A stretch of DNA of 64,000 nucleotides from Fibrobacteria bacterium. Lineage in GTDB: Bacteria; Fibrobacterota; Fibrobacteria; UBA11236. The DNA lies in contig JAYTSD010000008.1 of NCBI GenBank assembly GCA_043745805.1, forward strand, positions 97,943 through 161,942, in the 5' to 3' direction. A model generated the notes under the pieces. That model saw only the letters and a program-made list of their open reading frames with translations, was not told where the DNA came from and ran no database searches. Positions 26,825 through 55,265 of this stretch are shown here, piece after piece. The stretch's first letter is position 1, and every line of letters begins with the position of its first letter. The position numbers and the translations under genes were made by a program.

Positions 26825-26896
26825 GGCCTAGTATAATAATGATTTAGGGTCTATTATTTAAGAGTAGACTTATGTGATTCAGTGGGGAGACGGCTT

Positions 26897-28096
26897 ATGC
26901 AAAAGAAAAAAGTGCTAAAAAAGGGGCCTAAAAAGGAACTCAAGCCAACTAAAGCAAGCCCCAGCAAATCGTCTTCTACAAATAATATCAAAAACGCAAA
27001 AACAACTTCCAACAAGAAAAACCTCAAGGTAACACCAAAGTTACCTGAAAAAAAAGTTTTAGCGTCCTCCAAAAAAGGAACCGCAAAAAAAAGTCTTAAA
27101 AAAAAGGTCTTAAAAAAACCTATTACAAAGCCTAATTTAGGCTCGATTGCAAAAATGGCAAAGGAAACTGAGGCATCCAAAAAAATACCGAGCAAACAAA
27201 AAACTGTTTCTAACTCGCACTCCAAAAAAATGCTACAACCCGAACAATTCAGTATTTCAATAATTGAGCCAGGTAGCAAAAAAAATAAAACTTTAAGAAC
27301 CAAAAAATTTCCACAAACTCCTGCACAAAAACCCTTTGGATTTCCAGATGAAGCGCCTTCCCTTCCCAGCGAATATGGAATCGATAAATTTGTAATCATG
27401 CCAAAAGATCCCGAATATATTTTCGCCTATTGGGAAATCACCCCTGCTTTATGGAAAAAAAAAGTACAGGAGAAAAATTCTGCGGAAAATTATCGCGAAG
27501 CCGTTAAAATCGATTGGGAAACCAATGACCTTTTTGAAACCAATTTTGTTTTTGTGCCCGTAGAGTTTTCTGCCCGCAAATGGTATTTCAAAATGCCTGA
27601 GCAAAACAAAAACTATCGTTTAGAATTGGGTTGGTTAGGCGCGAATGGACACTTTATTACTTTACTCAACAGTAACGCTTCAGTTACCCCAGAGTCTTGG
27701 GAAACTACACGTAATCATCTAGCCCAAAACCCTGTATTGGCCTATATCACTCAAAGTTTGCCGCATTTAGGAAGCTCCGAGTTTAAACAAAACACAACAC
27801 AATTGGCGTATATCCCTAATTGGAATATGAATTCGGAAACATTTTCCTCTTCATCTTGGGCAAAAAAAAGCCAAACCGATTCCACCAAAGTGGATAAAGG
27901 CGTACAGTTAGAAGTGAAAGGTAAAGTCGCACCAGGAACTCATGTGAATATCGGGAATCAAGAAGTTGAAACCGATGCCAAGGGTAATTTTAAAGTGGTT
28001 TTTCCCGCTACTAAAAATGTACTCAATTTGGAATTAAGCAGTAATAATACCAGCAAGTCCTTCCGTTATGAATTTAAGGAACTCATATTGTTTTGA
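26897..28096 (+). CDS. DUF4912-like protein with about 140-aa Lys-rich N-terminal region
   Basis: The ATG at 26897 is preceded by GGGGAGA. The C-terminal part (EYGIDKFVIMPKDPEYIFAYWEI...) matches the DUF4912 pattern often found beside GH57 genes (from memory). The stop overlaps the GH57 start. Confidence 0.7.
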   Translation: MQKKKVLKKGPKKELKPTKASPSKSSSTNNIKNAKTTSNKKNLKVTPKLPEKKVLASSKKGTAKKSLKKKVLKKPITKPNLGSIAKMAKETEASKKIPSKQKTVSNSHSKKMLQPEQFSISIIEPGSKKNKTLRTKKFPQTPAQKPFGFPDEAPSLPSEYGIDKFVIMPKDPEYIFAYWEITPALWKKKVQEKNSAENYREAVKIDWETNDLFETNFVFVPVEFSARKWYFKMPEQNKNYRLELGWLGANGHFITLLNSNASVTPESWETTRNHLAQNPVLAYITQSLPHLGSSEFKQNTTQLAYIPNWNMNSETFSSSSWAKKSQTDSTKVDKGVQLEVKGKVAPGTHVNIGNQEVETDAKGNFKVVFPATKNVLNLELSSNNTSKSFRYEFKELILF

Positions 28097-29664
28097 TGGG
28101 GACTTTAAATTTTGTTTTACATGCCCATTTACCTTTTGTAAGGCATCCAGAACACGAACGATTTTTAGAAGAAGATTGGTTTTTTGAAGCCATAACAGAA
28201 ACTTATACTCCCCTTTTGCAAGCTTTTGAGCGTTTGCAATCCGAAGGGCTGCCTTTTAAAATCACCATGAGTATTACCCCTCCCCTTTGTGAAATGCTTA
28301 GTGATGAACTTTTGCAATCACGTTATGTCAATCATTTAAATCGCCTACGTGAACTGGCCGAAAAAGAATGTACTCGCACGAAAAATGATCCTGCCTTTTG
28401 TTATTTAGCTGCGATGTATCGCAATCGTTTTGAAGAGTGTTTTAAATTATTTTCCAGATATCATCGAAATTTATTAAACGGTTTTCGTCATTTCCAAAAA
28501 ACTGGAAATTTAGAAATCATTACTTGTGGAGCCACGCATGGTTTTCTGCCCAATCTGCGTTATGTTCCACGCTCAGTAGAAGCGCAACTTGAAGCGGCCG
28601 TAACCAATTATCAAAAACATTTTAATCAAGATCCCTGGGGGATTTGGTTAGGCGAATGTGGGTATTATCCCGGCCTTGATATTCCACTCAAACAAGCGGG
28701 GCTTAAATATTTTTTCACTGATACCCATGGCATATTACAAGGGCAACCGCCCTCGCCTAAAGGAAATTATGCGCCCGTGCAAACACCCTCAGGAGTGTAT
28801 TGTTTCGCCCGTGATCCCGAAAGTTCCAAAGCGGTATGGTCTGCCGAAGAAGGGTATCCTGGAGATTACCGTTACCGTGAGTTTTATCGCGATGTTGGAT
28901 TTGATTTGGAAATGGATTATATCAAGCCCTATATTCATCCTATAGGTTTTAGAATCAATACCGGCATCAAATATTACCGTATCACCGGTAATACGGGACA
29001 TAAAGAACCCTATGTAGAGGCTTGGGCAAAATCAGCCGCCCAAGATCATGCGCATAATTTTGTGCATAATCGACAATTGCAAATCGATTATTTAAGCCCC
29101 TATTTAGATACCCCTCCCTGCATAGTTTGCCCTTATGATGCCGAATTATTCGGGCATTGGTGGTATGAAGGTCCAATTTGGCTGGAAAATGTCATGCGCA
29201 AAATATTGACCGAACCTAGCAATATTAATTTGTCCACGCCCCGTGATTATTTACAGCAAGGTTATGTTATTCCGCAATCCCAACCGGCCTTTTCCTCATG
29301 GGGAGCAGGTGGCTATGCCGATGTATGGTTAAATGGGAGTAATGATTGGATTTATCCACATTTACATAAATGCGGAGAGCTTATGCATGCGATAGCACAT
29401 TTGCCAGAAGGAGATGCCGTCAATACTCGCGCACGCAATCAAATGGCACGAGAATTATTATTAGCTCAAAGTTCGGATTGGGCTTTCATTATGAAAACTG
29501 GCACCATGGTTGAATATGCCATTAAGCGCACACAAGTGCATGTTGACAATTGTTTAAAATTGCATCGCCAAATATTATCAAATAGCATTGATTCGGCATT
29601 TCTGGAAAATTTAGAAGCTACCAATAATATTTTTTCAGAACTCCATTATCGAATTTTCGCATAA
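28096..29664 (+). CDS. GH57-family 1,4-alpha-glucan branching enzyme (DUF1957 type)
   Basis: About 522 aa. LNFVLHAHLPFVRHPE, CGATHGFLP and PYDAELFGHWWYEGP blocks are typical of GH57 branching enzymes. Confidence 0.85.
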   Translation: MGTLNFVLHAHLPFVRHPEHERFLEEDWFFEAITETYTPLLQAFERLQSEGLPFKITMSITPPLCEMLSDELLQSRYVNHLNRLRELAEKECTRTKNDPAFCYLAAMYRNRFEECFKLFSRYHRNLLNGFRHFQKTGNLEIITCGATHGFLPNLRYVPRSVEAQLEAAVTNYQKHFNQDPWGIWLGECGYYPGLDIPLKQAGLKYFFTDTHGILQGQPPSPKGNYAPVQTPSGVYCFARDPESSKAVWSAEEGYPGDYRYREFYRDVGFDLEMDYIKPYIHPIGFRINTGIKYYRITGNTGHKEPYVEAWAKSAAQDHAHNFVHNRQLQIDYLSPYLDTPPCIVCPYDAELFGHWWYEGPIWLENVMRKILTEPSNINLSTPRDYLQQGYVIPQSQPAFSSWGAGGYADVWLNGSNDWIYPHLHKCGELMHAIAHLPEGDAVNTRARNQMARELLLAQSSDWAFIMKTGTMVEYAIKRTQVHVDNCLKLHRQILSNSIDSAFLENLEATNNIFSELHYRIFA

Positions 29665-29784
29665 TTTCTCGAAATAGTTTATCGCTTGAAAAAGGAGTAT
29701 TGAATTCCTTGTAAAAGTTATTTTTTCTCTCACTCTATTCTAATTTATAGCCTTATATTGTGGATAGAATAATAAGGGGATTTT

Positions 29785-31029
29785 ATGAGCACACGTTTGA
29801 AATTAGCAGTTATTGGATTAGGCCAATGTGGCGGTAACTTAGCCAATACCTTTGCCAAACATGGCTATCCCGCCATGGCCGTCAACACCTCCATTTTAGA
29901 TTTAAAAGAGCTTGCCAATATCCCTGAAAATCGACGAATATATGCGCCTTTAAACGATAGCGATGGTGCTGGAAAAGATCCGCGCATTGGTGAAAACGCT
30001 TTGCATTTACATACCACAAATATTCTCACTCAAGCACATGAATTTGTACAAGGTGCCGATGCCATTTTGCTTACATCAGGATTAGGTGGCGGTACCGGAA
30101 GTAACGTAGCCTTTTTAGGTAATCTATTGCGTCGCTTTAATTTACCCATTTTAATTATGTCCACCTTGCCTACGAATACCGAAAGTGCATTGTCAAAAAT
30201 CAATGCCTTGCGGAGTATTAATAAATTGGTAGCTGAAAATTTTGACTCCTGCATTCTTATAGATAATGAAAAAATTCTTTCTCAATTTCCCGATAGTAAT
30301 TTATCCACTTTTTATCCGCAAGCGAATGAATATGCCGTGCGTACGTTTACGCATTTCAATTCTTTGTCTACCGAATTTGCCAGCAAAAGCTTAATCAGTT
30401 TTGACAATGAAGATTTTAGGAAAGTATTATTTTCACGGGGTATTCTTATTTATGGCGAAACCGAAATTGCTGCCACCGAAATTTCCACCCTCGATGAAAT
30501 TTTACCTCAGCTAAAATTAATCTGGGAAAATGGCGGCCTAATGGCTGAAGGCTATAATTTTACTAGTGCGGCTGTGGGTGCAATTAGTTTTTATGCACCT
30601 TCGGAAATTCTTCAGAAAACGTCCAGCCGATTTTTAAATCAATTAGGAGAGGACTTTAAAGCTTTAACCAATGGAGCTACTTGTTATTTTGGCCTTTATG
30701 AAACACCTCCCGGAACGAGTACGGTAAAAATAAGTTCCATGCTGGGACGCTTATCCATTCCCATTCGTTTACAAGAAATGTTAGCAGGCGCTTCAAGTGA
30801 AGGGCAAAACTTAAAGCAAAAGATTAACCAAGAGTTGCCCACTTTAGATATTTCCGCATTAGAAGATATGGAATTATTTTCTAACCGTTCCGAATCTCGT
30901 TCTGTGCGCTCACTAAAAGATACAGCCATATTAGCGCGCTCCGAAATTACCGCAGCCACGACTGTGGTTTTAGAAAACCGCCCATATAGCCCAGAAGAAT
31001 ATGTGCGCTTAAAAAAAAGCAGTACCTAA
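29785..31029 (+). CDS. Divergent tubulin/FtsZ-superfamily GTPase
   Basis: 414 aa with an AAGGGGA Shine-Dalgarno. T1 loop VIGLGQCGGNLA, T4 signature SGLGGGTGSN, NxxxL block CILIDNEKIL and a T7-like LISFDNEDFRKVL. These are followed by a FtsZ-like C-terminal domain start (GILIYGETEIA) and a tail of about 90 aa. Confidence 0.8.
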   Translation: MSTRLKLAVIGLGQCGGNLANTFAKHGYPAMAVNTSILDLKELANIPENRRIYAPLNDSDGAGKDPRIGENALHLHTTNILTQAHEFVQGADAILLTSGLGGGTGSNVAFLGNLLRRFNLPILIMSTLPTNTESALSKINALRSINKLVAENFDSCILIDNEKILSQFPDSNLSTFYPQANEYAVRTFTHFNSLSTEFASKSLISFDNEDFRKVLFSRGILIYGETEIAATEISTLDEILPQLKLIWENGGLMAEGYNFTSAAVGAISFYAPSEILQKTSSRFLNQLGEDFKALTNGATCYFGLYETPPGTSTVKISSMLGRLSIPIRLQEMLAGASSEGQNLKQKINQELPTLDISALEDMELFSNRSESRSVRSLKDTAILARSEITAATTVVLENRPYSPEEYVRLKKSST

Positions 31030-31148
31030 AAGCCATCCCCCTAACTTCAGTTGACGAGAAAAAACTCTTGTCAATTCTGCCTATAAATAAATTGGTTATT
31101 CCGTCTTAAATAGCGTATAATAATTTTAGTTATTAGAGAGGACGCTTT

Positions 31149-31403
31149 ATGTTTATACTCAGTCTTGTTTGCCTATTCAGTACTTTTGGTGGCATTCTGC
31201 TTGCGCAATCGTTGAAGGGTATGCTCATTTTTAAAATGGGTTTAGAGAGAGGGCAAAAACTAATGTTTACCATTGGTATTGCCTCGGTAATTCTCGCGCT
31301 ACTTTTAAGTGCATTAAGCAGCTGCCTCGCAGGAAGCATGGGGTCTTGTCATAAGGCATGCCCTCCAGGACAAGGAATGGAAAGCTGTCCCCGTCACAAT
31401 TAG
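31149..31403 (+). CDS. Small two-TM membrane protein with Cys/His-rich C-terminus
   Basis: 84 aa with a strong AGAGAGGA Shine-Dalgarno 7 nt upstream. Two hydrophobic segments. The tail is SCLAGSMGSCHKACPPGQGMESCPRHN. Confidence 0.5.
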   Translation: MFILSLVCLFSTFGGILLAQSLKGMLIFKMGLERGQKLMFTIGIASVILALLLSALSSCLAGSMGSCHKACPPGQGMESCPRHN

Positions 31404-31475
31404 TTTTCAAATAAATTCATAATGTTATAATTATCACAATAATCATCATAAAAATCATTTAAGGTAGGAGTATCC

Positions 31476-33380
31476 ATGTCCACGGAAAATAAAGAAGCGG
31501 AATTTGAACTCAAAATAGATACCACGCATATGTCTAAAGAAAAGGCCGAAGCCTTAATGGTAGCTGAATCCGCGCGTGAAGCTAAATGGGAAAACCCTAG
31601 TTTTGCGGGTGGACTTTTTATGGGAAAATTTCAACCTGAACTTATTGTTCCTTTTCCTGAACAGGGTCCTGAAGATAAACTAATTGGTGATAAATTAATT
31701 GCTGAAGTTTCTGCATTTTTAAAAGCCAATTTAAATCCCGATGAAGTAGACCGTACGCGAGAAATTCCTAAAATCGTTCTCGATGGATTTACTAAAATGA
31801 AATTATGGGCCATGAAAATTCCAAAGGAATATGGCGGCTTAGCATTAAGCCAATATAACTACAATCGAACCATTTCTATGGTGGCATCTTATTGTGGCTC
31901 AACAGCGGTGTGGCTTTCCGCGCATCAAAGTATTGGGGTACCCCAACCCTTAAAAATGTTTGGAACGCCAGAACAAAAGAAAAAATATTTACCCCGTTTT
32001 GCCGAAGGCGCTATATCCGCTTTTGCGTTAACCGAACCGGATGTTGGTTCCGATCCTGCAAAGATGTCTACCGAAGCCGTTCCCACTGCCGATGGTAAAC
32101 ATTATATCATAAATGGAATGAAGCTTTGGTGTACAAATGGACCAGTAGCAGATATACTAGTTGTGATGGCGCGCACTCCGCCCAAAATCAAAAATGGAAA
32201 AGAGATTGCGCAAATCACTGCTTTTATTGTTGAAAAAGGTACGCCGGGTTTAGAAGTGGCGCATCGCTGCGATTTTATGGGCATAAGAGCTATTCAAAAT
32301 GGTTTAATGCGCTTTAAGGATGTAAAAGTTCCTGCGGAAAATATTATTCTCGGACCAGGTAAAGGCTTGAAATTAGCGCTTTCCACTTTAAATACTGGTC
32401 GCTTGACATTGCCTGCGGCAGCCGTTGGCATGGGCAAGCAATGCTTAAATATTGTCCGTAATTGGGCAAATGAGCGTGTACAATGGGGTTTGCCTATTGG
32501 TAAGCATGAAGCTATTTCCACTAAAATCGCCTATATGGCCTCTACTCAATTCGCTATGGAATCGGTGACTTGGTTAGCTTCCGCCATGGCTGATCAAGGT
32601 GGTTATGATATTCGCATAGAAGCGGCTATGGCCAAAATGTTTTGCTCCGAAGCGGCATGGAAAATGATCGATGAAACGATGCAAATTCGTGGCGGACGTG
32701 GCTATGAAACCGCAGAGTCATTAAGAGGACGTGGTGAAAAGGCTATCCCTACAGAACGTATGATGCGTGACTGCCGTATTAACCGTATCATCGAAGGTAC
32801 TACGGAAATTATGCATTTGTTCTTAGCGCGCGAAGCCATGGATCCCCATATGCAAGTCGCAGCGGAAATAGTATTGAAACATATTCCCATTGGCCGTAAA
32901 ATCAAAGCCGGTTTGAAAATGGCAAACTTTTATAGCAAGTGGTATCCCAGTCAATGGGTAAATACCAGTCTCTTCCCAAGCTATAATGAATTTGGTCCCA
33001 AACTTTCACGCCATATGAATTATGTAGAAAGAACATCTCATCAATTAGCCCGTTCTATTTTTCATGCCATGGGCATGTATCAAAACACACTTGAACGTAA
33101 GCAAGCTATGTTAGCGCGTATGGTGGATATTGGTACTGAATTATTTGCAATGGCCGCTACTTGTGCGAGAGCCAAAATGCTTACCGAAAAAGATCCTAAA
33201 AACCCCCATCCTGTGCATCTCGCCAATTTCTTTTGCAAAGAAAGTCGTCGTCGCATAGAAATTTTATTTGCCGGCATCAGTGATAATGATGATCGTCAAG
33301 CCAATAAAATTGCCAAAAGCTTAATGGCGGGAGAATACAAATGGATGGAGAATGATATTATTCGTTTATACGAAGATTAG
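31476..33380 (+). CDS. Long-form acyl-CoA dehydrogenase (FadE-like)
   Basis: 634 aa. ACAD signatures LTEPDVGSDPA and QIRGGRGYE, plus a C-terminal helical extension. Confidence 0.9.
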   Translation: MSTENKEAEFELKIDTTHMSKEKAEALMVAESAREAKWENPSFAGGLFMGKFQPELIVPFPEQGPEDKLIGDKLIAEVSAFLKANLNPDEVDRTREIPKIVLDGFTKMKLWAMKIPKEYGGLALSQYNYNRTISMVASYCGSTAVWLSAHQSIGVPQPLKMFGTPEQKKKYLPRFAEGAISAFALTEPDVGSDPAKMSTEAVPTADGKHYIINGMKLWCTNGPVADILVVMARTPPKIKNGKEIAQITAFIVEKGTPGLEVAHRCDFMGIRAIQNGLMRFKDVKVPAENIILGPGKGLKLALSTLNTGRLTLPAAAVGMGKQCLNIVRNWANERVQWGLPIGKHEAISTKIAYMASTQFAMESVTWLASAMADQGGYDIRIEAAMAKMFCSEAAWKMIDETMQIRGGRGYETAESLRGRGEKAIPTERMMRDCRINRIIEGTTEIMHLFLAREAMDPHMQVAAEIVLKHIPIGRKIKAGLKMANFYSKWYPSQWVNTSLFPSYNEFGPKLSRHMNYVERTSHQLARSIFHAMGMYQNTLERKQAMLARMVDIGTELFAMAATCARAKMLTEKDPKNPHPVHLANFFCKESRRRIEILFAGISDNDDRQANKIAKSLMAGEYKWMENDIIRLYED

Positions 33381-44231: not shown

Positions 44232-45346
44232 GCCATATCGTTCCCAAAGAACGTGAGAAAGCCATTTTAGTAGGGGTTGCCACACGTGAAGTGTCGCCCT
44301 CCGCTTTAAAAGAGCATTTAGCTGAGCTTGGACGTTTGGCGCACACTGCTGGAGCCGATATTACGAATATTGTGACACAAAGACGTGATGCCTTTGATCC
44401 CGCTACCTTAATTGGGGAAGGCAAAGTTAAAGAAATTGCTCTTTTGGTTAAAGAAACCTGTGCTGACTTAGTTATTTTTGATGAGGATCTTTCGGGCTCC
44501 CAAGCGAAAAAACTGGAAGCACTGCTCGCCATTAAAATAGTGGATCGCAGCGGTATCATTCTCGATATTTTTGCTAAACATGCTAAAACTGCGGAAGCAA
44601 AAATTCAGGTCGAAGTCGCACAATTACAATACATGTTACCTCGCCTAACCAAAGCATGGACGCATTTATCTCGCCAAGCAGGCGGTGTAGGTATTGGTAT
44701 GCGTGGTCCAGGTGAAACGCAGCTTGAAGTCGATAGACGCCTAGTACGCAAACGCATAGCCGATTTATCCGACAAGCTGGAAAAAATGGAAAGCATACGC
44801 CAAGCACAGCACAATCATCGCGTACCGATTTTTCATGCCGCTTTAGTTGGATATACCAATGCAGGAAAAAGTACACTGATGAATGGAATGACTAAGGCTG
44901 GCGTAGAAAGTGCGGATAAGCTTTTTGCTACCCTCGATCCTACCACACGCAAACTGTATTTGGGATCCCATAAACATGCGGTGATTTCCGATACCGTAGG
45001 CTTTATTCGCAAACTCCCCGTGGGATTAGTCGCTTCTTTTAAAAGCACGCTCAGTGTAGTTTGCCAAGCCTCTTTAATTTTACATGTGGTTGATGCCAGC
45101 TCTGAGGACTATGAAGATCAAATGGAAACCACCGCTAAAATTTTAAAAGAATTAAAAACCGATCACATTTTACGGCTTACGGTTTTTAATAAAATTGATT
45201 TACTCTCACCGGAGCGAGTAAATTTTATGCAGGTGCATTATCCCGAAGCCATGTTTGTTTCTGCGGATCAAAAAATTGGTTTGCAAGAATTGCGTGCGCG
45301 TATCGAGGAAATTTATACGCATGGCGGTTTCGCCAAATGGACTTAA
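44222..45346 (+). CDS. hflX: GTPase HflX
   Basis: 374 aa. HflX N-domain blocks (DRSGIILDIFAKHAKTAEAKIQVEVAQLQYMLPRL, RGPGETQLEVDRR). G1 GYTNAGKSTLMN, G3 DTVGF, G4 NKID. Confidence 0.9.
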   Translation: MGIGHIVPKEREKAILVGVATREVSPSALKEHLAELGRLAHTAGADITNIVTQRRDAFDPATLIGEGKVKEIALLVKETCADLVIFDEDLSGSQAKKLEALLAIKIVDRSGIILDIFAKHAKTAEAKIQVEVAQLQYMLPRLTKAWTHLSRQAGGVGIGMRGPGETQLEVDRRLVRKRIADLSDKLEKMESIRQAQHNHRVPIFHAALVGYTNAGKSTLMNGMTKAGVESADKLFATLDPTTRKLYLGSHKHAVISDTVGFIRKLPVGLVASFKSTLSVVCQASLILHVVDASSEDYEDQMETTAKILKELKTDHILRLTVFNKIDLLSPERVNFMQVHYPEAMFVSADQKIGLQELRARIEEIYTHGGFAKWT

Positions 45347-46215
45347 AAGCCGAATTTAATCCCGCTTATATTTCACGCCTCAAAGGTTTGTCATTACAAG
45401 CGAAATGGGTATTGGAAGGTGTCATGACCGGACGGCATCGTTCTCCTTATCATGGATATTCATCTGAGTTTTCACAATACAAAGGTTATGCTTTAGGCGA
45501 TGATTTAAAAAATCTGGATTGGAAAGTTTTTGGTAAGAACGATCAATTAGTCACACGCCGATATAGAGATGAAACCAATAGTAATGTGTATCTCGCCATA
45601 GATAGCTCTTTGTCTATGCATTATGGAAATCCTTTATCCAAATTAACTTATGTTAAAGTATTGGCGGCCTCACTCGGTATGCTGGCTTTTCGACAACGCG
45701 ATGCTTTAGCTTTAGCCACAGGTGCGGGCGAAAATATAAACTTTTTAGCGCCTAAAAATAGCGCCAGTCATTTTCAAAGAGTATTAGATACTTTAGAAAA
45801 GTTGCAGCCCTCGGGTGTTACGGATCTTAAAATGTTGTTTGAATCGATTGCTGTGCAAATAAAATCAGGCAGCATGGTTTTTGTTTTCACCGATCTTTGG
45901 CATCCTGACAACACTTTACGTGAAGGCTTAAAAGCCTTGCGTGCCAAGCATCCCGCAATTACTCTGATTCATATCCAAGATCCTGAAGAAAAATCCTTTT
46001 TTGCCGACGGCTATTTGGAGCTAGAAGATTTAGAAAATCAATCCAAACTAAAAGTATCCGCGAGTCATTTACGCCAGCAATATTTACAAACCCTGCAAGC
46101 GCATATACAAGCCATTCGTAATGAATGTGAAGGGTTACGTATGCATTATGTTCCTATACTCACGACAATGCCTTATTTCGAAGCGGTTCGTCGTATTTTA
46201 ACCCGAGGCAAATAG
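45337..46215 (+). CDS. DUF58-family (vWA-like) protein
   Basis: 292 aa. Hallmark YALGDDLKNLDWKVFGKNDQLVTRRY. The start overlaps the hflX stop by 10 nt. Confidence 0.8.
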   Translation: MDLKAEFNPAYISRLKGLSLQAKWVLEGVMTGRHRSPYHGYSSEFSQYKGYALGDDLKNLDWKVFGKNDQLVTRRYRDETNSNVYLAIDSSLSMHYGNPLSKLTYVKVLAASLGMLAFRQRDALALATGAGENINFLAPKNSASHFQRVLDTLEKLQPSGVTDLKMLFESIAVQIKSGSMVFVFTDLWHPDNTLREGLKALRAKHPAITLIHIQDPEEKSFFADGYLELEDLENQSKLKVSASHLRQQYLQTLQAHIQAIRNECEGLRMHYVPILTTMPYFEAVRRILTRGK

Positions 46216-48275
46216 TGTTTTCTTTTTTTTCGCCTTTAACCTTTTGGATAGCCTCGGCCTTAGCTATTCCCTTACTCATTCATTTTTGGGGCAAACAAAA
46301 ACTAGAAGTTAAAAAATTTGCCAGCTTATTATTAATACAACATAAGCTGGCGGAAAGTATGCGCAGAAATCGCATAAAAAATTTATTCTTACTCATTCTC
46401 CGTACCTTAATGTTACTCTGTCTTTTGCTCGCTTTAGTGCAGCCTATTTTTCATTTTAAAGCTTTTTCCCAAAAGCCGGAAGAAGTGGCTATTCTAAATG
46501 TGAATAATGCCTATGCCCAGTTAACGTTACCCAATGGAAAAATGGTTTTTGAGCAAGAACAAAAAGATTGGCGAAAATTAGATTCGCTACTTAAAAAGCC
46601 CTGTAAACAATTTGATATTCTTGCAATATCAGATAATACCTCCCTACCTGAAGCACGCTTTGGGCAAATGGAATATGCATGGCAAAGATTGTTGCAATAT
46701 GCAGAAGAAAAAAAAACCGCCACCAAACTTTATATACCGGTATTTAATTGGCAAGCACTCGAAAAATTTATTCCACAATTAGCTATTGTTTTACCAACGC
46801 ATCCGCATCTCACCATTGATTTTGTTGACTATGCTGCATTGAGTGCCCAGTTAAATCCATTCAATTCCATTGCCATTATTGCTCCGCAACAAAATGGCCT
46901 TCCCCATTTTCGCATTGCCTTACAAAACACGATTCCTTTAACCAGTCCCGAATTCACTTTACAGTTATGGCAAGACAATCATTTATCGCAAGAGAAACCT
47001 TTAAGCGATGTACAACAAGATCAACCCTTACAGCCCAGCTCGCAATCTTTTTTCAAAGGTTACCTGCAACTCAAACCAAAACCCGCAGTTGCAAACCCAA
47101 GCTTTGCCTATGCGAAATATTATTTTGCTTTACCCAAACCTCATACGCTTAATTTACAACATATTGGAAGTACTGCATTTTCACTCCCAAGTTTAGGCAT
47201 TGCGAGTCGATATTGCCAAATTCAACATCTTGAAGATCCGGCTTCCCTATCGCAAAATCTTCAGAACAGTAATACACCAGTTACGGCCTTAATTTATTTT
47301 TCCAATGCGTCCTCAACTTCCACAGAATATTATTTCCAAATCTTGGAATACATACGCCAAGGTGGCCATGTTATTATGGGATTGGGCGATCATACAGATA
47401 TCGCAGCACTCAATAGATATTTTTTACAACCCTTGTCTATGGGACAAATTAGCGCGCCGGAAAATTTTGGTGCGGCACAAAAGGTGGTCGCCTCAACTTT
47501 CGAATTAAAAAAATGGGGCTTGCCTGATGACATTTCTATTTCGGGAACGGTCTCATACTTATTTCCATTCACGGCACAACCCGAAGTAAATATTTTACTT
47601 TCCACTGGACAAAAACCTTTATTATTACAAATACCCTATCATTATGGCGAAGTGTTTTTATGGACTACGGATTTAGATAATCTTGCCTGGAGTGATCTAG
47701 GGGTGCAAGGATTTATTCCTTTATTACATCAAGCCTTTATTCGCAATAGTTGGCAAGCCTTATGGCATAATCATGGAATTGCTTCCGACTCCATATTGAC
47801 GCTCGATGAAGGTGATAGTGAAATTAAGAGCGCGCAAAGTAATGAAAGCCAATGGCAAATAATTGATCCCGATGGAAATACCTTTTCACGTATTCGCCGA
47901 GAAGGGCGTCGTGTGCATATTGGGCCATTTCCACAATTAGGCATTTACAAAGCCATGCGTTCCCTACCCTTTCGTGACTCACTATTTTTTGCGGTTAATT
48001 TGGAAATTCACCATGAGGATAAACCTACCGCATTTACCGAACAAAAAACTGCGGTATTAAAATCCTTATCACAATTTGAATCGCAAATTAATGTCTTGCC
48101 ATTTGAAGATGACAATAAAGCGGAAGGCTATACCGGAAAAAAAATCGATGAGGAATGGAAAAAATGGAACTCCCCTGAGTTGCCATTATGGAGAATACTC
48201 ATACTGCTAGCGATATTACTATTTTTCCTAGAGGGACTTTTATCCATTTTATTTCGTATGAACAGAGTAAACTAA
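46215..48275 (+). CDS. BatA-N-terminal-domain (double-TM) membrane protein
   Basis: 686 aa with a GTG start sharing 1 nt with the DUF58 stop. N-terminus PLTFWIASALAIPLLIHFWGK plus a second TM, as in aerotolerance-operon BatA_N/TIGR02226-type proteins. There is a C-terminal TM anchor. Confidence 0.65.
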   Translation: MFSFFSPLTFWIASALAIPLLIHFWGKQKLEVKKFASLLLIQHKLAESMRRNRIKNLFLLILRTLMLLCLLLALVQPIFHFKAFSQKPEEVAILNVNNAYAQLTLPNGKMVFEQEQKDWRKLDSLLKKPCKQFDILAISDNTSLPEARFGQMEYAWQRLLQYAEEKKTATKLYIPVFNWQALEKFIPQLAIVLPTHPHLTIDFVDYAALSAQLNPFNSIAIIAPQQNGLPHFRIALQNTIPLTSPEFTLQLWQDNHLSQEKPLSDVQQDQPLQPSSQSFFKGYLQLKPKPAVANPSFAYAKYYFALPKPHTLNLQHIGSTAFSLPSLGIASRYCQIQHLEDPASLSQNLQNSNTPVTALIYFSNASSTSTEYYFQILEYIRQGGHVIMGLGDHTDIAALNRYFLQPLSMGQISAPENFGAAQKVVASTFELKKWGLPDDISISGTVSYLFPFTAQPEVNILLSTGQKPLLLQIPYHYGEVFLWTTDLDNLAWSDLGVQGFIPLLHQAFIRNSWQALWHNHGIASDSILTLDEGDSEIKSAQSNESQWQIIDPDGNTFSRIRREGRRVHIGPFPQLGIYKAMRSLPFRDSLFFAVNLEIHHEDKPTAFTEQKTAVLKSLSQFESQINVLPFEDDNKAEGYTGKKIDEEWKKWNSPELPLWRILILLAILLFFLEGLLSILFRMNRVN

Positions 48276-52950: not shown

Positions 52951-54324
52951 ATGGCAAAATTATCTTATGAACAAGCATTCGAAATAGTTACCCAGCATAA
53001 GCAAGCTCAGTTGCTCGATTTTTATTCTGAGCTGAATACTGAAGAACAAGAATCGCTCTTAAACCAAATCGAAAATATTGATTTTTCCTTAATGGAAAAA
53101 CTTTACCGTAACCTAGTAGTTAACCAAGCGCATACGCAAGCCTTGGGAACAGTCTCCCCTTTGCAAGCCCCTCGCTGGGAAGATTTTCCTTTAACCGAAA
53201 AAGCGGTATATGCCAATTCGGGTATGCGTGCTTTGCATCAGGGCAAGGTAGCCGCCTTTCTAGTAGCAGGAGGACAAGGTTCCCGCTTAGGGTTTGAAGG
53301 CCCCAAAGGGATGTTTAATATTGGCTTACCTTCCGGCAAGTCTCTTTTTCAATTGCAAGCTGAGCGCTTATTAAAACTTTCCCAGCATTGTGGAAAAAGC
53401 ATTCCTTGGTACATCATGACTAGCTTAGAAAATGATAGCGATACGCAAAATTTTTTCCGCGCCCATAATAATTTTGGCTATCCCGCAAAAGATTTGTTTT
53501 TCTTTTCTCAAGGACAATTGCCTTTAATCAATGAACAGGGCAAAATATTACTCGATAGTAAAAGCAAAATATCCCAAGGCGCCAATGGAAATGGCGGATG
53601 CTTTTTAGCCTTAGCGCAATCAGGCGCTTTAGCCGATATGAAAAAACGGGGGATTGAAAATATTTTCTTTTATAGCGTAGACAATGCTTTGGTTAAAATG
53701 TGTGATGCTAATTTTTTAGGCTATTTTATACACTCCGCATTACCCACTGGCAGCAAGGCTGTAGCCAAAGCCTATGCGGAAGAAAAAGTAGGCGTACTCT
53801 GTTTGCGCGAAGGGCGACCTGCCGTTTTGGAATATTCCGATATGCCGGAAGAAATGATTCAGAGGCGTTTACCCAATGGCGAATTGGCATTTAATGCCGG
53901 TAACATTGCGGTTCACTTATTTACCCGCGCCTTTTTGGAAGAAAATTCCGAAGGCGAACTTCCCTATCATGTCGCTCATAAAAAAATTGCTTTTGTGGAT
54001 GCGTCAGGAATAAAACAAATTCCTTCGCAACCCAATGCCTTTAAATTCGAATTATTTATGTTTGATCTTTTCCCTAAAGCCAAAGGCATGGCAGCCTTGG
54101 AAGTGATTCGTGATGAAGAATTTGCTCCGGTAAAAAATAAAGAGGGAAAAGACAGCCCTGAAACCGCAAGAAATTTAATTTTAGATTTGCATAAAAAATG
54201 GGCTCTAGCCAATGGCATTTCCGAAAACGAATTACAGGGAAAGATTTTGGAAATCTCGCCTTTACAATCCTTTGGAGGCGAAAAATTAAATCCATCTTTA
54301 CTGCGCGGGCAAATCCAAGGTTAA
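52951..54324 (+). CDS. UDP-N-acetylglucosamine (UDP-sugar) pyrophosphorylase, eukaryotic UAP1/UDPGP type
   Basis: 457 aa. LVAGGQGSRLGFEGPKGMFNIGLPSGKSLFQLQAERL and later NGNGG, FFYSVDN and FKFELFMFD blocks are typical of the UDPGP family. Confidence 0.8.
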   Translation: MAKLSYEQAFEIVTQHKQAQLLDFYSELNTEEQESLLNQIENIDFSLMEKLYRNLVVNQAHTQALGTVSPLQAPRWEDFPLTEKAVYANSGMRALHQGKVAAFLVAGGQGSRLGFEGPKGMFNIGLPSGKSLFQLQAERLLKLSQHCGKSIPWYIMTSLENDSDTQNFFRAHNNFGYPAKDLFFFSQGQLPLINEQGKILLDSKSKISQGANGNGGCFLALAQSGALADMKKRGIENIFFYSVDNALVKMCDANFLGYFIHSALPTGSKAVAKAYAEEKVGVLCLREGRPAVLEYSDMPEEMIQRRLPNGELAFNAGNIAVHLFTRAFLEENSEGELPYHVAHKKIAFVDASGIKQIPSQPNAFKFELFMFDLFPKAKGMAALEVIRDEEFAPVKNKEGKDSPETARNLILDLHKKWALANGISENELQGKILEISPLQSFGGEKLNPSLLRGQIQG

Positions 54325-54341
54325 TTTCCTATTTTACCCAC

Positions 54342-55265
54342 ATGAAAAAGAAATCATCATCCTTTATTTTAGCACTAGTAATTCTACTAGGCAGTTTTTT
54401 TGGCCGTGCACAAGCTGCGGAAGTCACTCCAACTTTTGATTCTACACGATCCTTTCAATATTTAAAACAGCAATGTTCTTTGGGACCCCGTAACCCAGGA
54501 AGTACGGGACATCTCGAAGCAATAGCCTATTTTAAAAACTTTTTTAAACAGAATCATATTCCCTATAGCACGCAAGAATTTATTCATGCCGATGCTATGA
54601 CAGGCCAAAGAATTCCGCTCACTAATTTCATTATCACGTTCAAAGGCAAAGACACCAAGCAAAAACCACTTTTATTTTGTGCCCATTGGGATAGCCGTCC
54701 TCGCGCCGATCAGGAACCAAATACTAGTTTGCATAATACTGCTATTTTAGGCGCTAATGATGGTGCTTCAGGTATTGCCGTACTCATGGAATTAGCTAGC
54801 CTGTTAAGTCAAAAACCACCGAAGCAAACTATTCATTTGGCTTTTTTTGATGGAGAAGATTATGGCCGCGAAGGTAGTCTAGATGAATATTTTTTAGGAG
54901 CAAAATATTTTGCAGATAACTTTCCAGTTAAAACTTTAAACTTTGCCATCTTACTCGATATGATTGGAGATAGTGATTTACAACTTCCCTATGAAGGTAC
55001 TTCACTTTCACACTTTCCCGATTTAACGCAAAAAATTTGGGCCTATGCGCAAAAATTAGGGCTAAAGGAATTTACCGCCACTCGAGGAGTTGGTTTGAGT
55101 GATGACCATGTACCCTTAATTCAAAAAGGTGTTAAAGCCATAGATATTATTGATTTCACCTATCCGTATTGGCATACCCTGCAAGATACTCCCGAACATT
55201 GCTCCGCCCATAGCCTAGGTGTTACGGGGCGATTATTAACCGCTCTTGCCTATCACGGCCTTTAA
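54342..55265 (+). CDS. Secreted M28-family peptidase / glutaminyl-cyclase-like protein
   Basis: The ATG at 54342 gives the signal peptide MKKKSSSFILALVILLGSFFGRAQA. FCAHWDSRPRAD, GANDGASGIAVLMELA, FFDGEDYG and DDHVPL blocks. Confidence 0.75.
   Translation: MKKKSSSFILALVILLGSFFGRAQAAEVTPTFDSTRSFQYLKQQCSLGPRNPGSTGHLEAIAYFKNFFKQNHIPYSTQEFIHADAMTGQRIPLTNFIITFKGKDTKQKPLLFCAHWDSRPRADQEPNTSLHNTAILGANDGASGIAVLMELASLLSQKPPKQTIHLAFFDGEDYGREGSLDEYFLGAKYFADNFPVKTLNFAILLDMIGDSDLQLPYEGTSLSHFPDLTQKIWAYAQKLGLKEFTATRGVGLSDDHVPLIQKGVKAIDIIDFTYPYWHTLQDTPEHCSAHSLGVTGRLLTALAYHGL

Follow-up and report, generated by a model that had tools for sequence, protein, structure and literature searches.

Bacterial filaments of the tubulin family with known roles are few: FtsZ acts in division, TubZ and PhuZ position plasmid and phage DNA, and BtubAB can be added to these. 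Here, we describe a gene for a 414-aa protein of this superfamily, found in a 64-kb stretch of DNA from a Fibrobacteria bacterium (contig JAYTSD010000008.1). The whole 64-kb stretch is called the window below, and coordinates are window positions. The reading that we regard as probable is that the protein belongs to a chromosomal TubZ-like clade and would work as a GTP-driven filament, accessory to canonical FtsZ, with a C-terminal peptide that docks a partner, and that the small open reading frame (ORF) following it goes with the next gene, an acyl-CoA dehydrogenase (ACAD).

The closest described systems are the RepX/TubZ proteins, which are plasmid-borne in Bacillota (Bacillus pXO1-like and pBtoxis plasmids; structures 4ei7 and 2xka). 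Their loci carry a 105- to 111-aa gene in the TubR position, 2-27 bp upstream. Type III partition systems of this kind need a tubC centromere, and the flexible C-terminal tail of TubZ is the partner-binding site (PMC5322520). CetZ is an archaeal cell-shape protein (4b45, 4b46, 3zid), encoded as a chromosomal accessory paralogue that coexists with FtsZ. Two further groups of divergent, uncharacterised paralogues were defined by Makarova and Koonin (2010). FtsZl1 proteins are ~1000 aa long, with a coiled coil and an alpha-helical C-domain and with no recognisable T6-H7 or C-domain, and lie in operons with vWA, GTPase, OmpA and kinase genes; FtsZl2 proteins are proteobacterial, with an unrelated alpha/beta C-region of ~300 aa and marginal PF00091 similarity (PMC2875224). 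Both groups correspond to Pfam Tubulin_2 PF13809 and typically coexist with canonical FtsZ (PMC2875224, PMC9871819).

Judged by its residues, the 414-aa protein is a true GTPase of the tubulin/FtsZ superfamily, and its T1, T3, T4, T5, T6 and T7 loops are intact. Pfam Tubulin PF00091 matches residues 7-166 at 64.2 bits against a gathering cut-off of 33 (E 2.5e-17), a score so far above the cut-off that the similarity goes far beyond chance, and Pfam TubZ-like_C PF22453 matches residues 200-295 at 30.2 bits against a cut-off of 26. An AlphaFold2 (AF2) model has a predicted local distance difference test score (pLDDT) of 84.9 and a predicted TM-score (pTM) of 0.78. The original prediction, which was made without database searches, had recognised a divergent GTPase of this superfamily from its loops, and this was borne out: the ORFs of 414 and 84 aa (29785-31029 and 31149-31403) are both present, and the loop motifs and the EEYVRLKKSST end that it quoted were mapped to residues. 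The gene and the features of its globular part are as follows, with loop conservation measured over 34 family members from four or more phyla.

29785-31029, + strand: tubulin-like gene, encoding the 414-aa TubZ-like tubulin/FtsZ-superfamily GTPase (ORF list, Pfam, PDB relatives, AF2 model)
29803-30282, + strand: GTPase (nucleotide-binding) domain, residues 7-166 (PF00091; mean pLDDT >90 in every 10-residue block)
29815-29838, + strand: T1 loop GLGQCGGN, residues 11-18 (G11, G13, G16, G17 and N18 invariant)
29965-29982, + strand: T3 loop GAGKDP, residues 61-66 (aligns with FtsZ GAGNDP/GAGGNP; G61 and G63 invariant)
30079-30105, + strand: T4 signature GLGGGTGSN, residues 99-107 (G101-G105, GGGTG, invariant)
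30259-30276, + strand: T6 region IDNEKI, residues 159-164 (D160 and N161 invariant; aligns with FtsZ IPNDKL/IPNEKL)
30382-30669, + strand: TubZ-like C-terminal (activation) domain, residues 200-295 (PF22453; also in relatives from other phyla)
30397-30426, + strand: T7 synergy loop SFDNEDFRKV, residues 205-214 (D207 invariant; F206, D210 and R212 at least 90% conserved)

P129 and E133 of the T5 loop (residues 128-134) are also invariant, as are N181 and N192 of H7, and the globular core has a mean column identity of 0.65-1.0 among 42 Fibrobacteria members. When the T7 loop is aligned with FtsZ LINVDFADVK, D207 and D210 match both FtsZ T7 aspartates. Since these acids act only when a subunit is inserted into the GTP site of its neighbour, their conservation argues for a polymerising GTPase, and the protein probably forms filaments.

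Comparisons by sequence, by profile and by fold agree that the best solved relative is Bacillus RepX 4ei7, a pXO1-type TubZ. It is the top PDB match of the single sequence (E 2.9e-21, residues 24-333). A family profile matches RepX over its full length at 1.1e-41, followed by CetZ2 at 2e-30 and by FtsZs at 3e-26 or weaker, the last over the GTPase domain only. Foldseek with the AF2 model again places 4ei7 first (E 2e-27, TM-scores 0.75/0.81, 377 columns), with CetZ, Bt TubZ and then FtsZ behind it. The description of the protein as a hybrid of tubulin and FtsZ is therefore replaced by one of closeness to RepX-type TubZ, and what had been taken for the start of an FtsZ-like C-terminal domain is TubZ-like_C, with FtsZ_C PF12327 absent from the Pfam matches at E<=1. 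Shared with RepX/TubZ are the two-domain fold with a TubZ-like_C domain, a long C-terminal helix that leads into a flexible tail whose tip is conserved, and the T7 acids, so that polymerisation-coupled GTP hydrolysis would be expected. In contrast, identity to RepX/TubZ is only about 24-28%, the C-terminal tip is a different peptide or a set of HEAT repeats, and the gene is chromosomal and occurs in diderm phyla. The protein probably works like a TubZ-type filament.

Other branches of the superfamily are less similar. CetZ is second-best by fold and profile (Foldseek E about 1e-24 to 1e-22) and, as a chromosomal paralogue accessory to FtsZ, resembles what is proposed for the 414-aa protein, but it is archaeal, scores 11 orders of magnitude below RepX by profile, and has neither the Fibrobacteria terminal peptide nor HEAT fusions. 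FtsZ shares the GTPase domain and the T1-T7 loops (E 1e-16 to 1e-8) and the order of globular core, disordered linker and conserved terminal peptide; its alignments nevertheless end at about residue 225-247, and its terminal peptide is different. The NCBIfam FtsZ equivalog TIGR00065 gives only 78.2 bits against a cut-off of 295.2, and no division and cell wall (dcw) cluster or ftsZ-like gene lies in the window, in agreement with the earlier view that this is not canonical FtsZ. The T1 loop had been considered closer to beta-tubulin; however, the matches to BtubB and beta-tubulin are confined to residues 77-166, at E 6e-5 to 8e-4, and a Tubulin_C domain gave no Pfam match. As these tubulin matches are marginal, the beta-tubulin-like T1 is a cosmetic resemblance. 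FtsZl1 and FtsZl2 had been put forward for comparison, and they are alike in being divergent and uncharacterised, but membership of either was rejected on their defining features (PMC2875224, PMC9871819): the protein has only 414 aa, all loops from T1 to T7 with T6-H7-T7 intact, a TubZ-like C-domain, none of the neighbours of either group and no match to Tubulin_2 PF13809 at E<=1. Against FtsZl2 in particular stand its clear PF00091 match (E 2.5e-17) and its Fibrobacteria-like, not proteobacterial, origin. PhuZ and phage TubZ belong to the same superfamily, with a weak PHROG match to PhuZ (7e-5) and 25% identity to Bacillus phage G gp138; in Foldseek against BFVD the E value is about 1e-12 and the TM-score about 0.5, and no phage context is seen in the window. 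A phage origin was rejected, as the PHROG matches are marginal only.

The gene had also been called an orphan, which it is not. A search of 5.8 billion proteins yielded 408 relatives at E<=1e-3. Among them are about 43 clusters at 55-69% BLASTP identity, whose named members are metagenome-assembled genomes (MAGs) of Fibrobacterota/Fibrobacteria; overall, uncultured Fibrobacteria hold about 40 relatives that are 55-72% identical. Further clades are formed by proteins with C-terminal HEAT repeats (40-45% identity), Latescibacteria proteins (~38%) and long Myxococcota/'delta' proteins (32-37%). A scan of reference genomes recovered members in Fibrobacteria, Nitrospirota, Latescibacterota, many Polyangiales and Sandaracinaceae and one Schekmanbacteria. 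In a library clustered at 50% identity, proteins of 363-983 aa matched, 85 of its representatives reaching E<=1e-30 and 514 reaching E<=1e-10. Relatives in plasmid and phage databases are only 25-28% identical (RepX, about 27%). In a rough neighbour-joining tree, the Fibrobacteria clade is sister to the Nitrospirota HEAT clade inside a chromosomal clade of 92 representatives, and a separate clade of 15 tips holds RepX, Bacillus phage G gp138 and an Alicyclobacillus plasmid protein. No description of the chromosomal clade was found in the literature searched, so the original prediction of a poorly described group stands; the bacterial CetZ/TubZ-like groups named by Santana-Molina et al. (2023) are limited to Firmicutes TubZ and some Chloroflexota sequences (PMC9871819). 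By sequence, the gene is a member of an uncharacterised, multi-phylum chromosomal clade nearest to plasmid TubZ/RepX.

Within Fibrobacteria, the order sufS-nifU-tubulin-like gene-small ORF-ACAD-Wzi is found in about 20 species, and it is also conserved in a 3.75-Mb chromosome (OY970309.1). The tubulin-like gene is 55-74% identical across these loci, similar to SufS and NifU, and its GC content is in line with the uniform GC content of the window. These three features together indicate that the gene has apparently been inherited vertically in uncultured Fibrobacteria.

Beyond the globular core, the C-terminus carries three further features.

30763-30879, + strand: long C-terminal helix, residues 327-348 (H11-like), and conserved LPTLDISALEDMELF segment, residues 351-365 (DSSP on the model)
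30880-30984, + strand: disordered variable linker, residues 366-400 (pLDDT <50; column identity 0.37-0.54 and variable length in the 42 Fibrobacteria members)
30985-31026, + strand: conserved C-terminal peptide YSPEEYVRLKKSST, residues 401-414 (predicted partner-binding tip; helix 403-413 in the model)

The alignment with RepX reaches residue 333-339, that is, into the long helix. Family-wide, P326 and E339 are invariant in this region, and R328, A336, K346, L354 and D355 are at least 90% conserved. The low-complexity linker of about 90 aa that had been proposed is thus overstated, since only residues 366-400 are variable and disordered and the helix and the 351-365 segment precede them. The proposed architecture of a linker plus a conserved terminal peptide does hold: 41 of 42 Fibrobacteria members carry the tip YS-[LP]-E-[ED]-Y-[VI]-[KR]-[LI]-K-[KR], and the remaining one (P0024) stops within the motif. 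In the Fibrobacteria linker, a second, weaker motif is semi-conserved, [ST]-D-T-x-[VI]-L-x-R (DT-x-x-L-x-R, residues 379-385, window 30919-30939). HEAT repeats take the C-terminal position in the Nitrospirota clade and in some Myxococcota members, so the C-terminus looks like an exchangeable docking module, with parallels in the partner-binding tail of TubZ and in the linker-plus-peptide layout of FtsZ. The FtsA-binding motif of E. coli FtsZ is DIPAFLRKQ, which the Fibrobacteria peptide does not resemble. As a possible membrane-targeting helix, a reading that was not adopted, the peptide has a hydrophobic moment of 0.28-0.35, compared with 0.78 for the FtsA helix and 0.38 for the MinD helix. 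In a MAFFT alignment (columns about 753-765), EEYVRLKK (residues 405-412) is paired with the D-E-G-V-R-M-E-A helix in the final HEAT repeat of Nitrospirota proteins; speculatively, the Fibrobacteria peptide might be what is left of such a helix.

A dedicated partner of the filament might be sought among genes that stay beside it. Neighbours were clustered de novo in 86 loci and identified mostly by reading their sequences, not by profile search. In every other Fibrobacteria locus that carries it (L001, L003, L007-L025, L031, L088), the tubulin-like gene follows sufB/C/D-sufS-nifU, in which NifU, an Fe-S scaffold, closes the suf cluster; the gap from nifU can be as short as 30 bp (L003). Fibrobacteria relatives thus sit between suf genes and ACAD, and in the window, too, the gene is outside any dcw or ftsA context. 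Elsewhere the neighbours are PfkB, MtnA and RimP genes (Latescibacterota), a UvrA-like protein, NUDIX and an outer-membrane protein upstream and CimA and MsrA downstream (Polyangiaceae), or a divergent GreA (other Myxococcota). In the HEAT sister clade, the gene lies immediately upstream of mraZ-rsmH-ftsL-ftsI-murE-murF in four species-level loci (L005, L026, L029, L097) and beside maf and a septal-type AMIN-Amidase_3-LysM amidase in another (L096). In six other loci of that clade (L027, L030, L032, L034, L039, L095), a LOG-like gene of roughly 150 aa is found downstream, identified as SLOG (LDcluster4) by precomputed Pfam matches. The adjacency to dcw genes, maf and the amidase weakly suggests division or envelope-related positioning.

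The mechanism that we propose would run as follows. Monomers would bind GTP and, to go by residue conservation, polymerise head to tail; the T7 loop of one subunit would complete the GTPase site of the next, giving dynamic (cytomotive) filaments; and the C-terminal peptide, or the HEAT repeats in its place, would recruit an adaptor or cargo whose gene lies elsewhere in the genome. The filament would be an accessory cytoskeletal element alongside canonical FtsZ. Canonical FtsZ is generally present in Myxococcota and Nitrospirota, and this, together with the low equivalog score and the missing FtsZ_C domain, makes an accessory role the most likely one. Within Fibrobacterota, the same is suggested by Fibrobacter succinogenes, which has an FtsZ_C-domain protein, FSU_0987 (PMC6851124).

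Several points weigh against this proposal. GTPase activity and polymerisation are deduced from conserved residues. Every family member in the reference-genome scan comes from a MAG, and none from a cultured organism. A second FtsZ homologue is absent from the 64-kb window and the 86 loci, as judged by tblastn with an E. coli FtsZ probe (run without SEG and composition adjustment), which matched only the tubulin-like genes themselves. No operon partner is shared across phyla in the 86 loci, only lineage-specific neighbours, so that the cargo and the cellular role are guesses. The adjacency to dcw genes is seen in only 4 of the ~12 species of the HEAT clade and may represent one lineage, and the neighbour-joining tree has no support values.

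A broader proposal is possible, and we put it forward tentatively. A chromosomal lineage that is vertically inherited and has not been described before, with ~90 clusters at 50% identity (Fibrobacterota, Nitrospirota, Latescibacterota, Myxococcota), might form a TubR-independent cytomotive filament whose C-terminal adaptor can be exchanged (a short peptide, HEAT repeats or long extensions), acting in division or envelope organisation alongside FtsZ as a counterpart of archaeal CetZ. If true, a chromosomal TubZ relative that lacks TubR and carries swappable C-terminal modules would add an accessory cytoskeleton to those of bacteria, across diderm phyla. It would also bear on the origin of plasmid TubZ, which may have been captured from the chromosomal lineage, or the reverse. 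What is new here is the uncharacterised clade; the superfamily and the TubZ-type fold were already known. The 414-aa protein is small, soluble and confidently modelled, and therefore directly testable by heterologous expression.

The partner of the filament could instead be encoded next door. The original prediction had proposed that the small protein downstream, with two transmembrane (TM) segments, is a membrane anchor or redox partner; under this alternative it would be bound through the C-terminal peptide. The genes concerned are the following.

31149-31403, + strand: small two-TM protein gene, 84 aa (ORF list; 17-species alignment, selection, locus comparison)
31476-33380, + strand: 634-aa ACAD of the VLCAD/ACAD9 type (Pfam Acyl-CoA_dh_N/M/1 and ACAD9-ACADV_C)

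The small ORF is, by its substitution pattern, a real gene under purifying selection. An alignment from 17 species has 21 invariant columns, SLVC-FS-FGGILLGQSLKG-LIF-GLEKGQKKMF; synonymous sites are saturated (proportion of differences, pS, 0.7-1.0) and nonsynonymous differences (pN) are about 0.2, for a pN/pS of 0.28 and a median dN/dS of 0.14. The Shine-Dalgarno-like GAGAGGA and the two hydrophobic segments noted originally are present, and similar ribosome-binding sequences precede the ORF in most species. Between the hydrophobic segments lies the conserved basic loop SLKGLLIF-GLEKGQKK, which probably faces the cytoplasm and could there contact the acidic EEY in the filament tail. A search with the single small-protein sequence matched only the window's own protein; a profile search found 105 clusters of 44-111 aa, and every named one is from Fibrobacterota. 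The Cys/His-rich tail that had been described is real in the window copy, but a long tail occurs in only about 7 of the 105 clusters, most copies ending in 'PGC[RH]x' soon after the second TM segment. The extended tails (window 31320-31403; P0141, P0174, P0154, P0187, P0134) show a recurring C-x-H ... C-x-R-H, for example CPRH, shared by the window copy and P0141. Should the basic loop be cytoplasmic, the Cys/His tail would be periplasmic and could bind metal or form disulfides.

Synteny appears at first to favour the anchor, as the small ORF follows the tubulin-like gene in 18 of the 19 distinct Fibrobacteria loci that continue past that gene; the anchor idea thus narrowly survives the check on conservation beside homologues that was proposed with the original prediction. 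However, it lies directly upstream of ACAD in every Fibrobacteria locus that reaches ACAD, even where all other neighbours differ. In these ACAD-linked loci the small protein has 62-84 aa and the ACAD 634 aa (window 31149-33380, L087 6001-8390, L090 4047-6308), and ACAD is 73-86% identical across Fibrobacteria loci. Two arrangements (L087 and L090/L091) have the order glycosyltransferase family 4 (GT4), small ORF, ACAD, with no tubulin-like gene in 10- to 12-kb loci. Conversely, L017 has Wzi directly after the tubulin-like gene (P0037); both the small ORF and ACAD are missing there, and the terminal peptide is kept. In the window itself, the suf genes have been lost upstream, and the tubulin-like gene, small ORF and ACAD are retained. 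Next to the tubulin-like genes of other phyla, no small-ORF homologue was detected, and intergenic gaps of 53-384 bp show no translational coupling. Every informative rearrangement thus keeps the small ORF with ACAD and splits the tubulin-like gene from a neighbour, which weakens the anchor idea. The small ORF most likely belongs with ACAD, and its partnership with the tubulin-like gene is probably a synteny artefact; we consider an anchor for the filament unlikely. VLCAD-type (very-long-chain acyl-CoA dehydrogenase) enzymes are membrane-associated, so a small membrane partner for ACAD is plausible, and the two-TM protein may be its membrane anchor or partner. The case warns that conserved synteny among related genomes need not mean functional coupling.

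A second alternative is that the protein is a domesticated type III (TubZRC-like) DNA-partition motor, which would move the chromosome or an unlinked replicon with an adaptor encoded elsewhere. RepX/TubZ are indeed the nearest characterised relatives by all three comparisons, and the long C-terminal helix and flexible tail with a conserved charged tip are shared. A partition locus is expected to place a TubR gene a few base pairs upstream, but no TubR-like small gene was found there: the upstream gene is a glycoside hydrolase family 57 (GH57) branching enzyme 120 bp away in the window and NifU in Fibrobacteria relatives. No tubC iteron array was found in either flank of the tubulin-like gene, and repeats in 29400-31600 are short, in two or three copies and at chance level only, with no array in either intergenic region. 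No TubY-like gene lies nearby. The surroundings are chromosomal and housekeeping in character, without mobile-element genes by Pfam on the window proteins. Lacking a TubR gene, tubC and a plasmid or phage location, the locus falls outside the TubZRC partition family on three features, and the low identity to RepX and its separate place in the tree point the same way. We regard a partition motor as distinctly unlikely, and an accessory filament of the TubZ-like clade as the better account of the locus.

That the protein is a non-polymerising GTPase or a decaying paralogue without a cytoskeletal role is very improbable. The patchy distribution of the family and its restriction to MAGs would fit such a protein, but the residues for catalysis and nucleotide binding, T7 acids included, show little or no variation across phyla, the core is as strongly conserved in Fibrobacteria as described above, and the ORF is intact in about 40 clusters. 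Least probable of all is that it is the only, fast-evolving FtsZ of its lineage and drives division, as the lack of another FtsZ homologue in the window, the Joint Genome Institute (JGI) label 'cell division GTPase FtsZ' on relatives and the dcw adjacency in the HEAT clade could suggest, since its FtsZ equivalog score is far too low, FtsZ_C and the FtsA-binding motif are lacking, it is neither beside ftsA nor in a dcw cluster in the window, the HEAT-clade gene lies upstream of mraZ rather than at the ftsA-ftsZ end, and F. succinogenes FSU_0987 does carry FtsZ_C.

The immediate neighbourhood of the gene in the window agrees with what had been reported, with a GH57 branching enzyme and ACAD as neighbours and gaps of about 120 bp (120 bp from GH57 and 119 bp to the small ORF). 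Upstream, Pfam identifies a DUF4912 protein followed by the 523-aa GH57 enzyme. Only the window has this pair in place of the suf genes, which indicates a local rearrangement. The pair occupies 26882-29664; the N-terminal ~160 aa of the DUF4912 protein are Lys-rich and of low complexity, and its gene runs 4 nt into the branching-enzyme gene, which suggests that the two genes are coupled and glycogen-related. Scans of the locus for promoters and terminators gave matches at chance level only, and PADLOC returned no defence-system matches.

By Pfam, the remainder of the window encodes chromosomal housekeeping functions (proS-like, penicillin-binding protein PBP1, GMP synthase, shikimate genes, glutamine synthetase GS III), with no dcw genes among the window proteins. 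A same-strand run of genes at 42-55 kb had been suspected of being a dcw cluster with ftsZ; this was rejected by Pfam, which identifies GMP synthase, HflX, DUF58/BatA, shikimate genes, sugar-nucleotide enzymes and an M28 peptidase. Within this run, a DUF58 gene and then a gene for a 686-aa BatA-domain protein, of the aerotolerance-operon type, come right after hflX and guaA (45337-48275). Near its end, the listed ORF for the M28 peptidase (54198-55265) shares 127 nt with that for a UDP-glucose pyrophosphorylase-like protein (52951-54324), and the true start of the peptidase is probably further downstream than that of the listed ORF.

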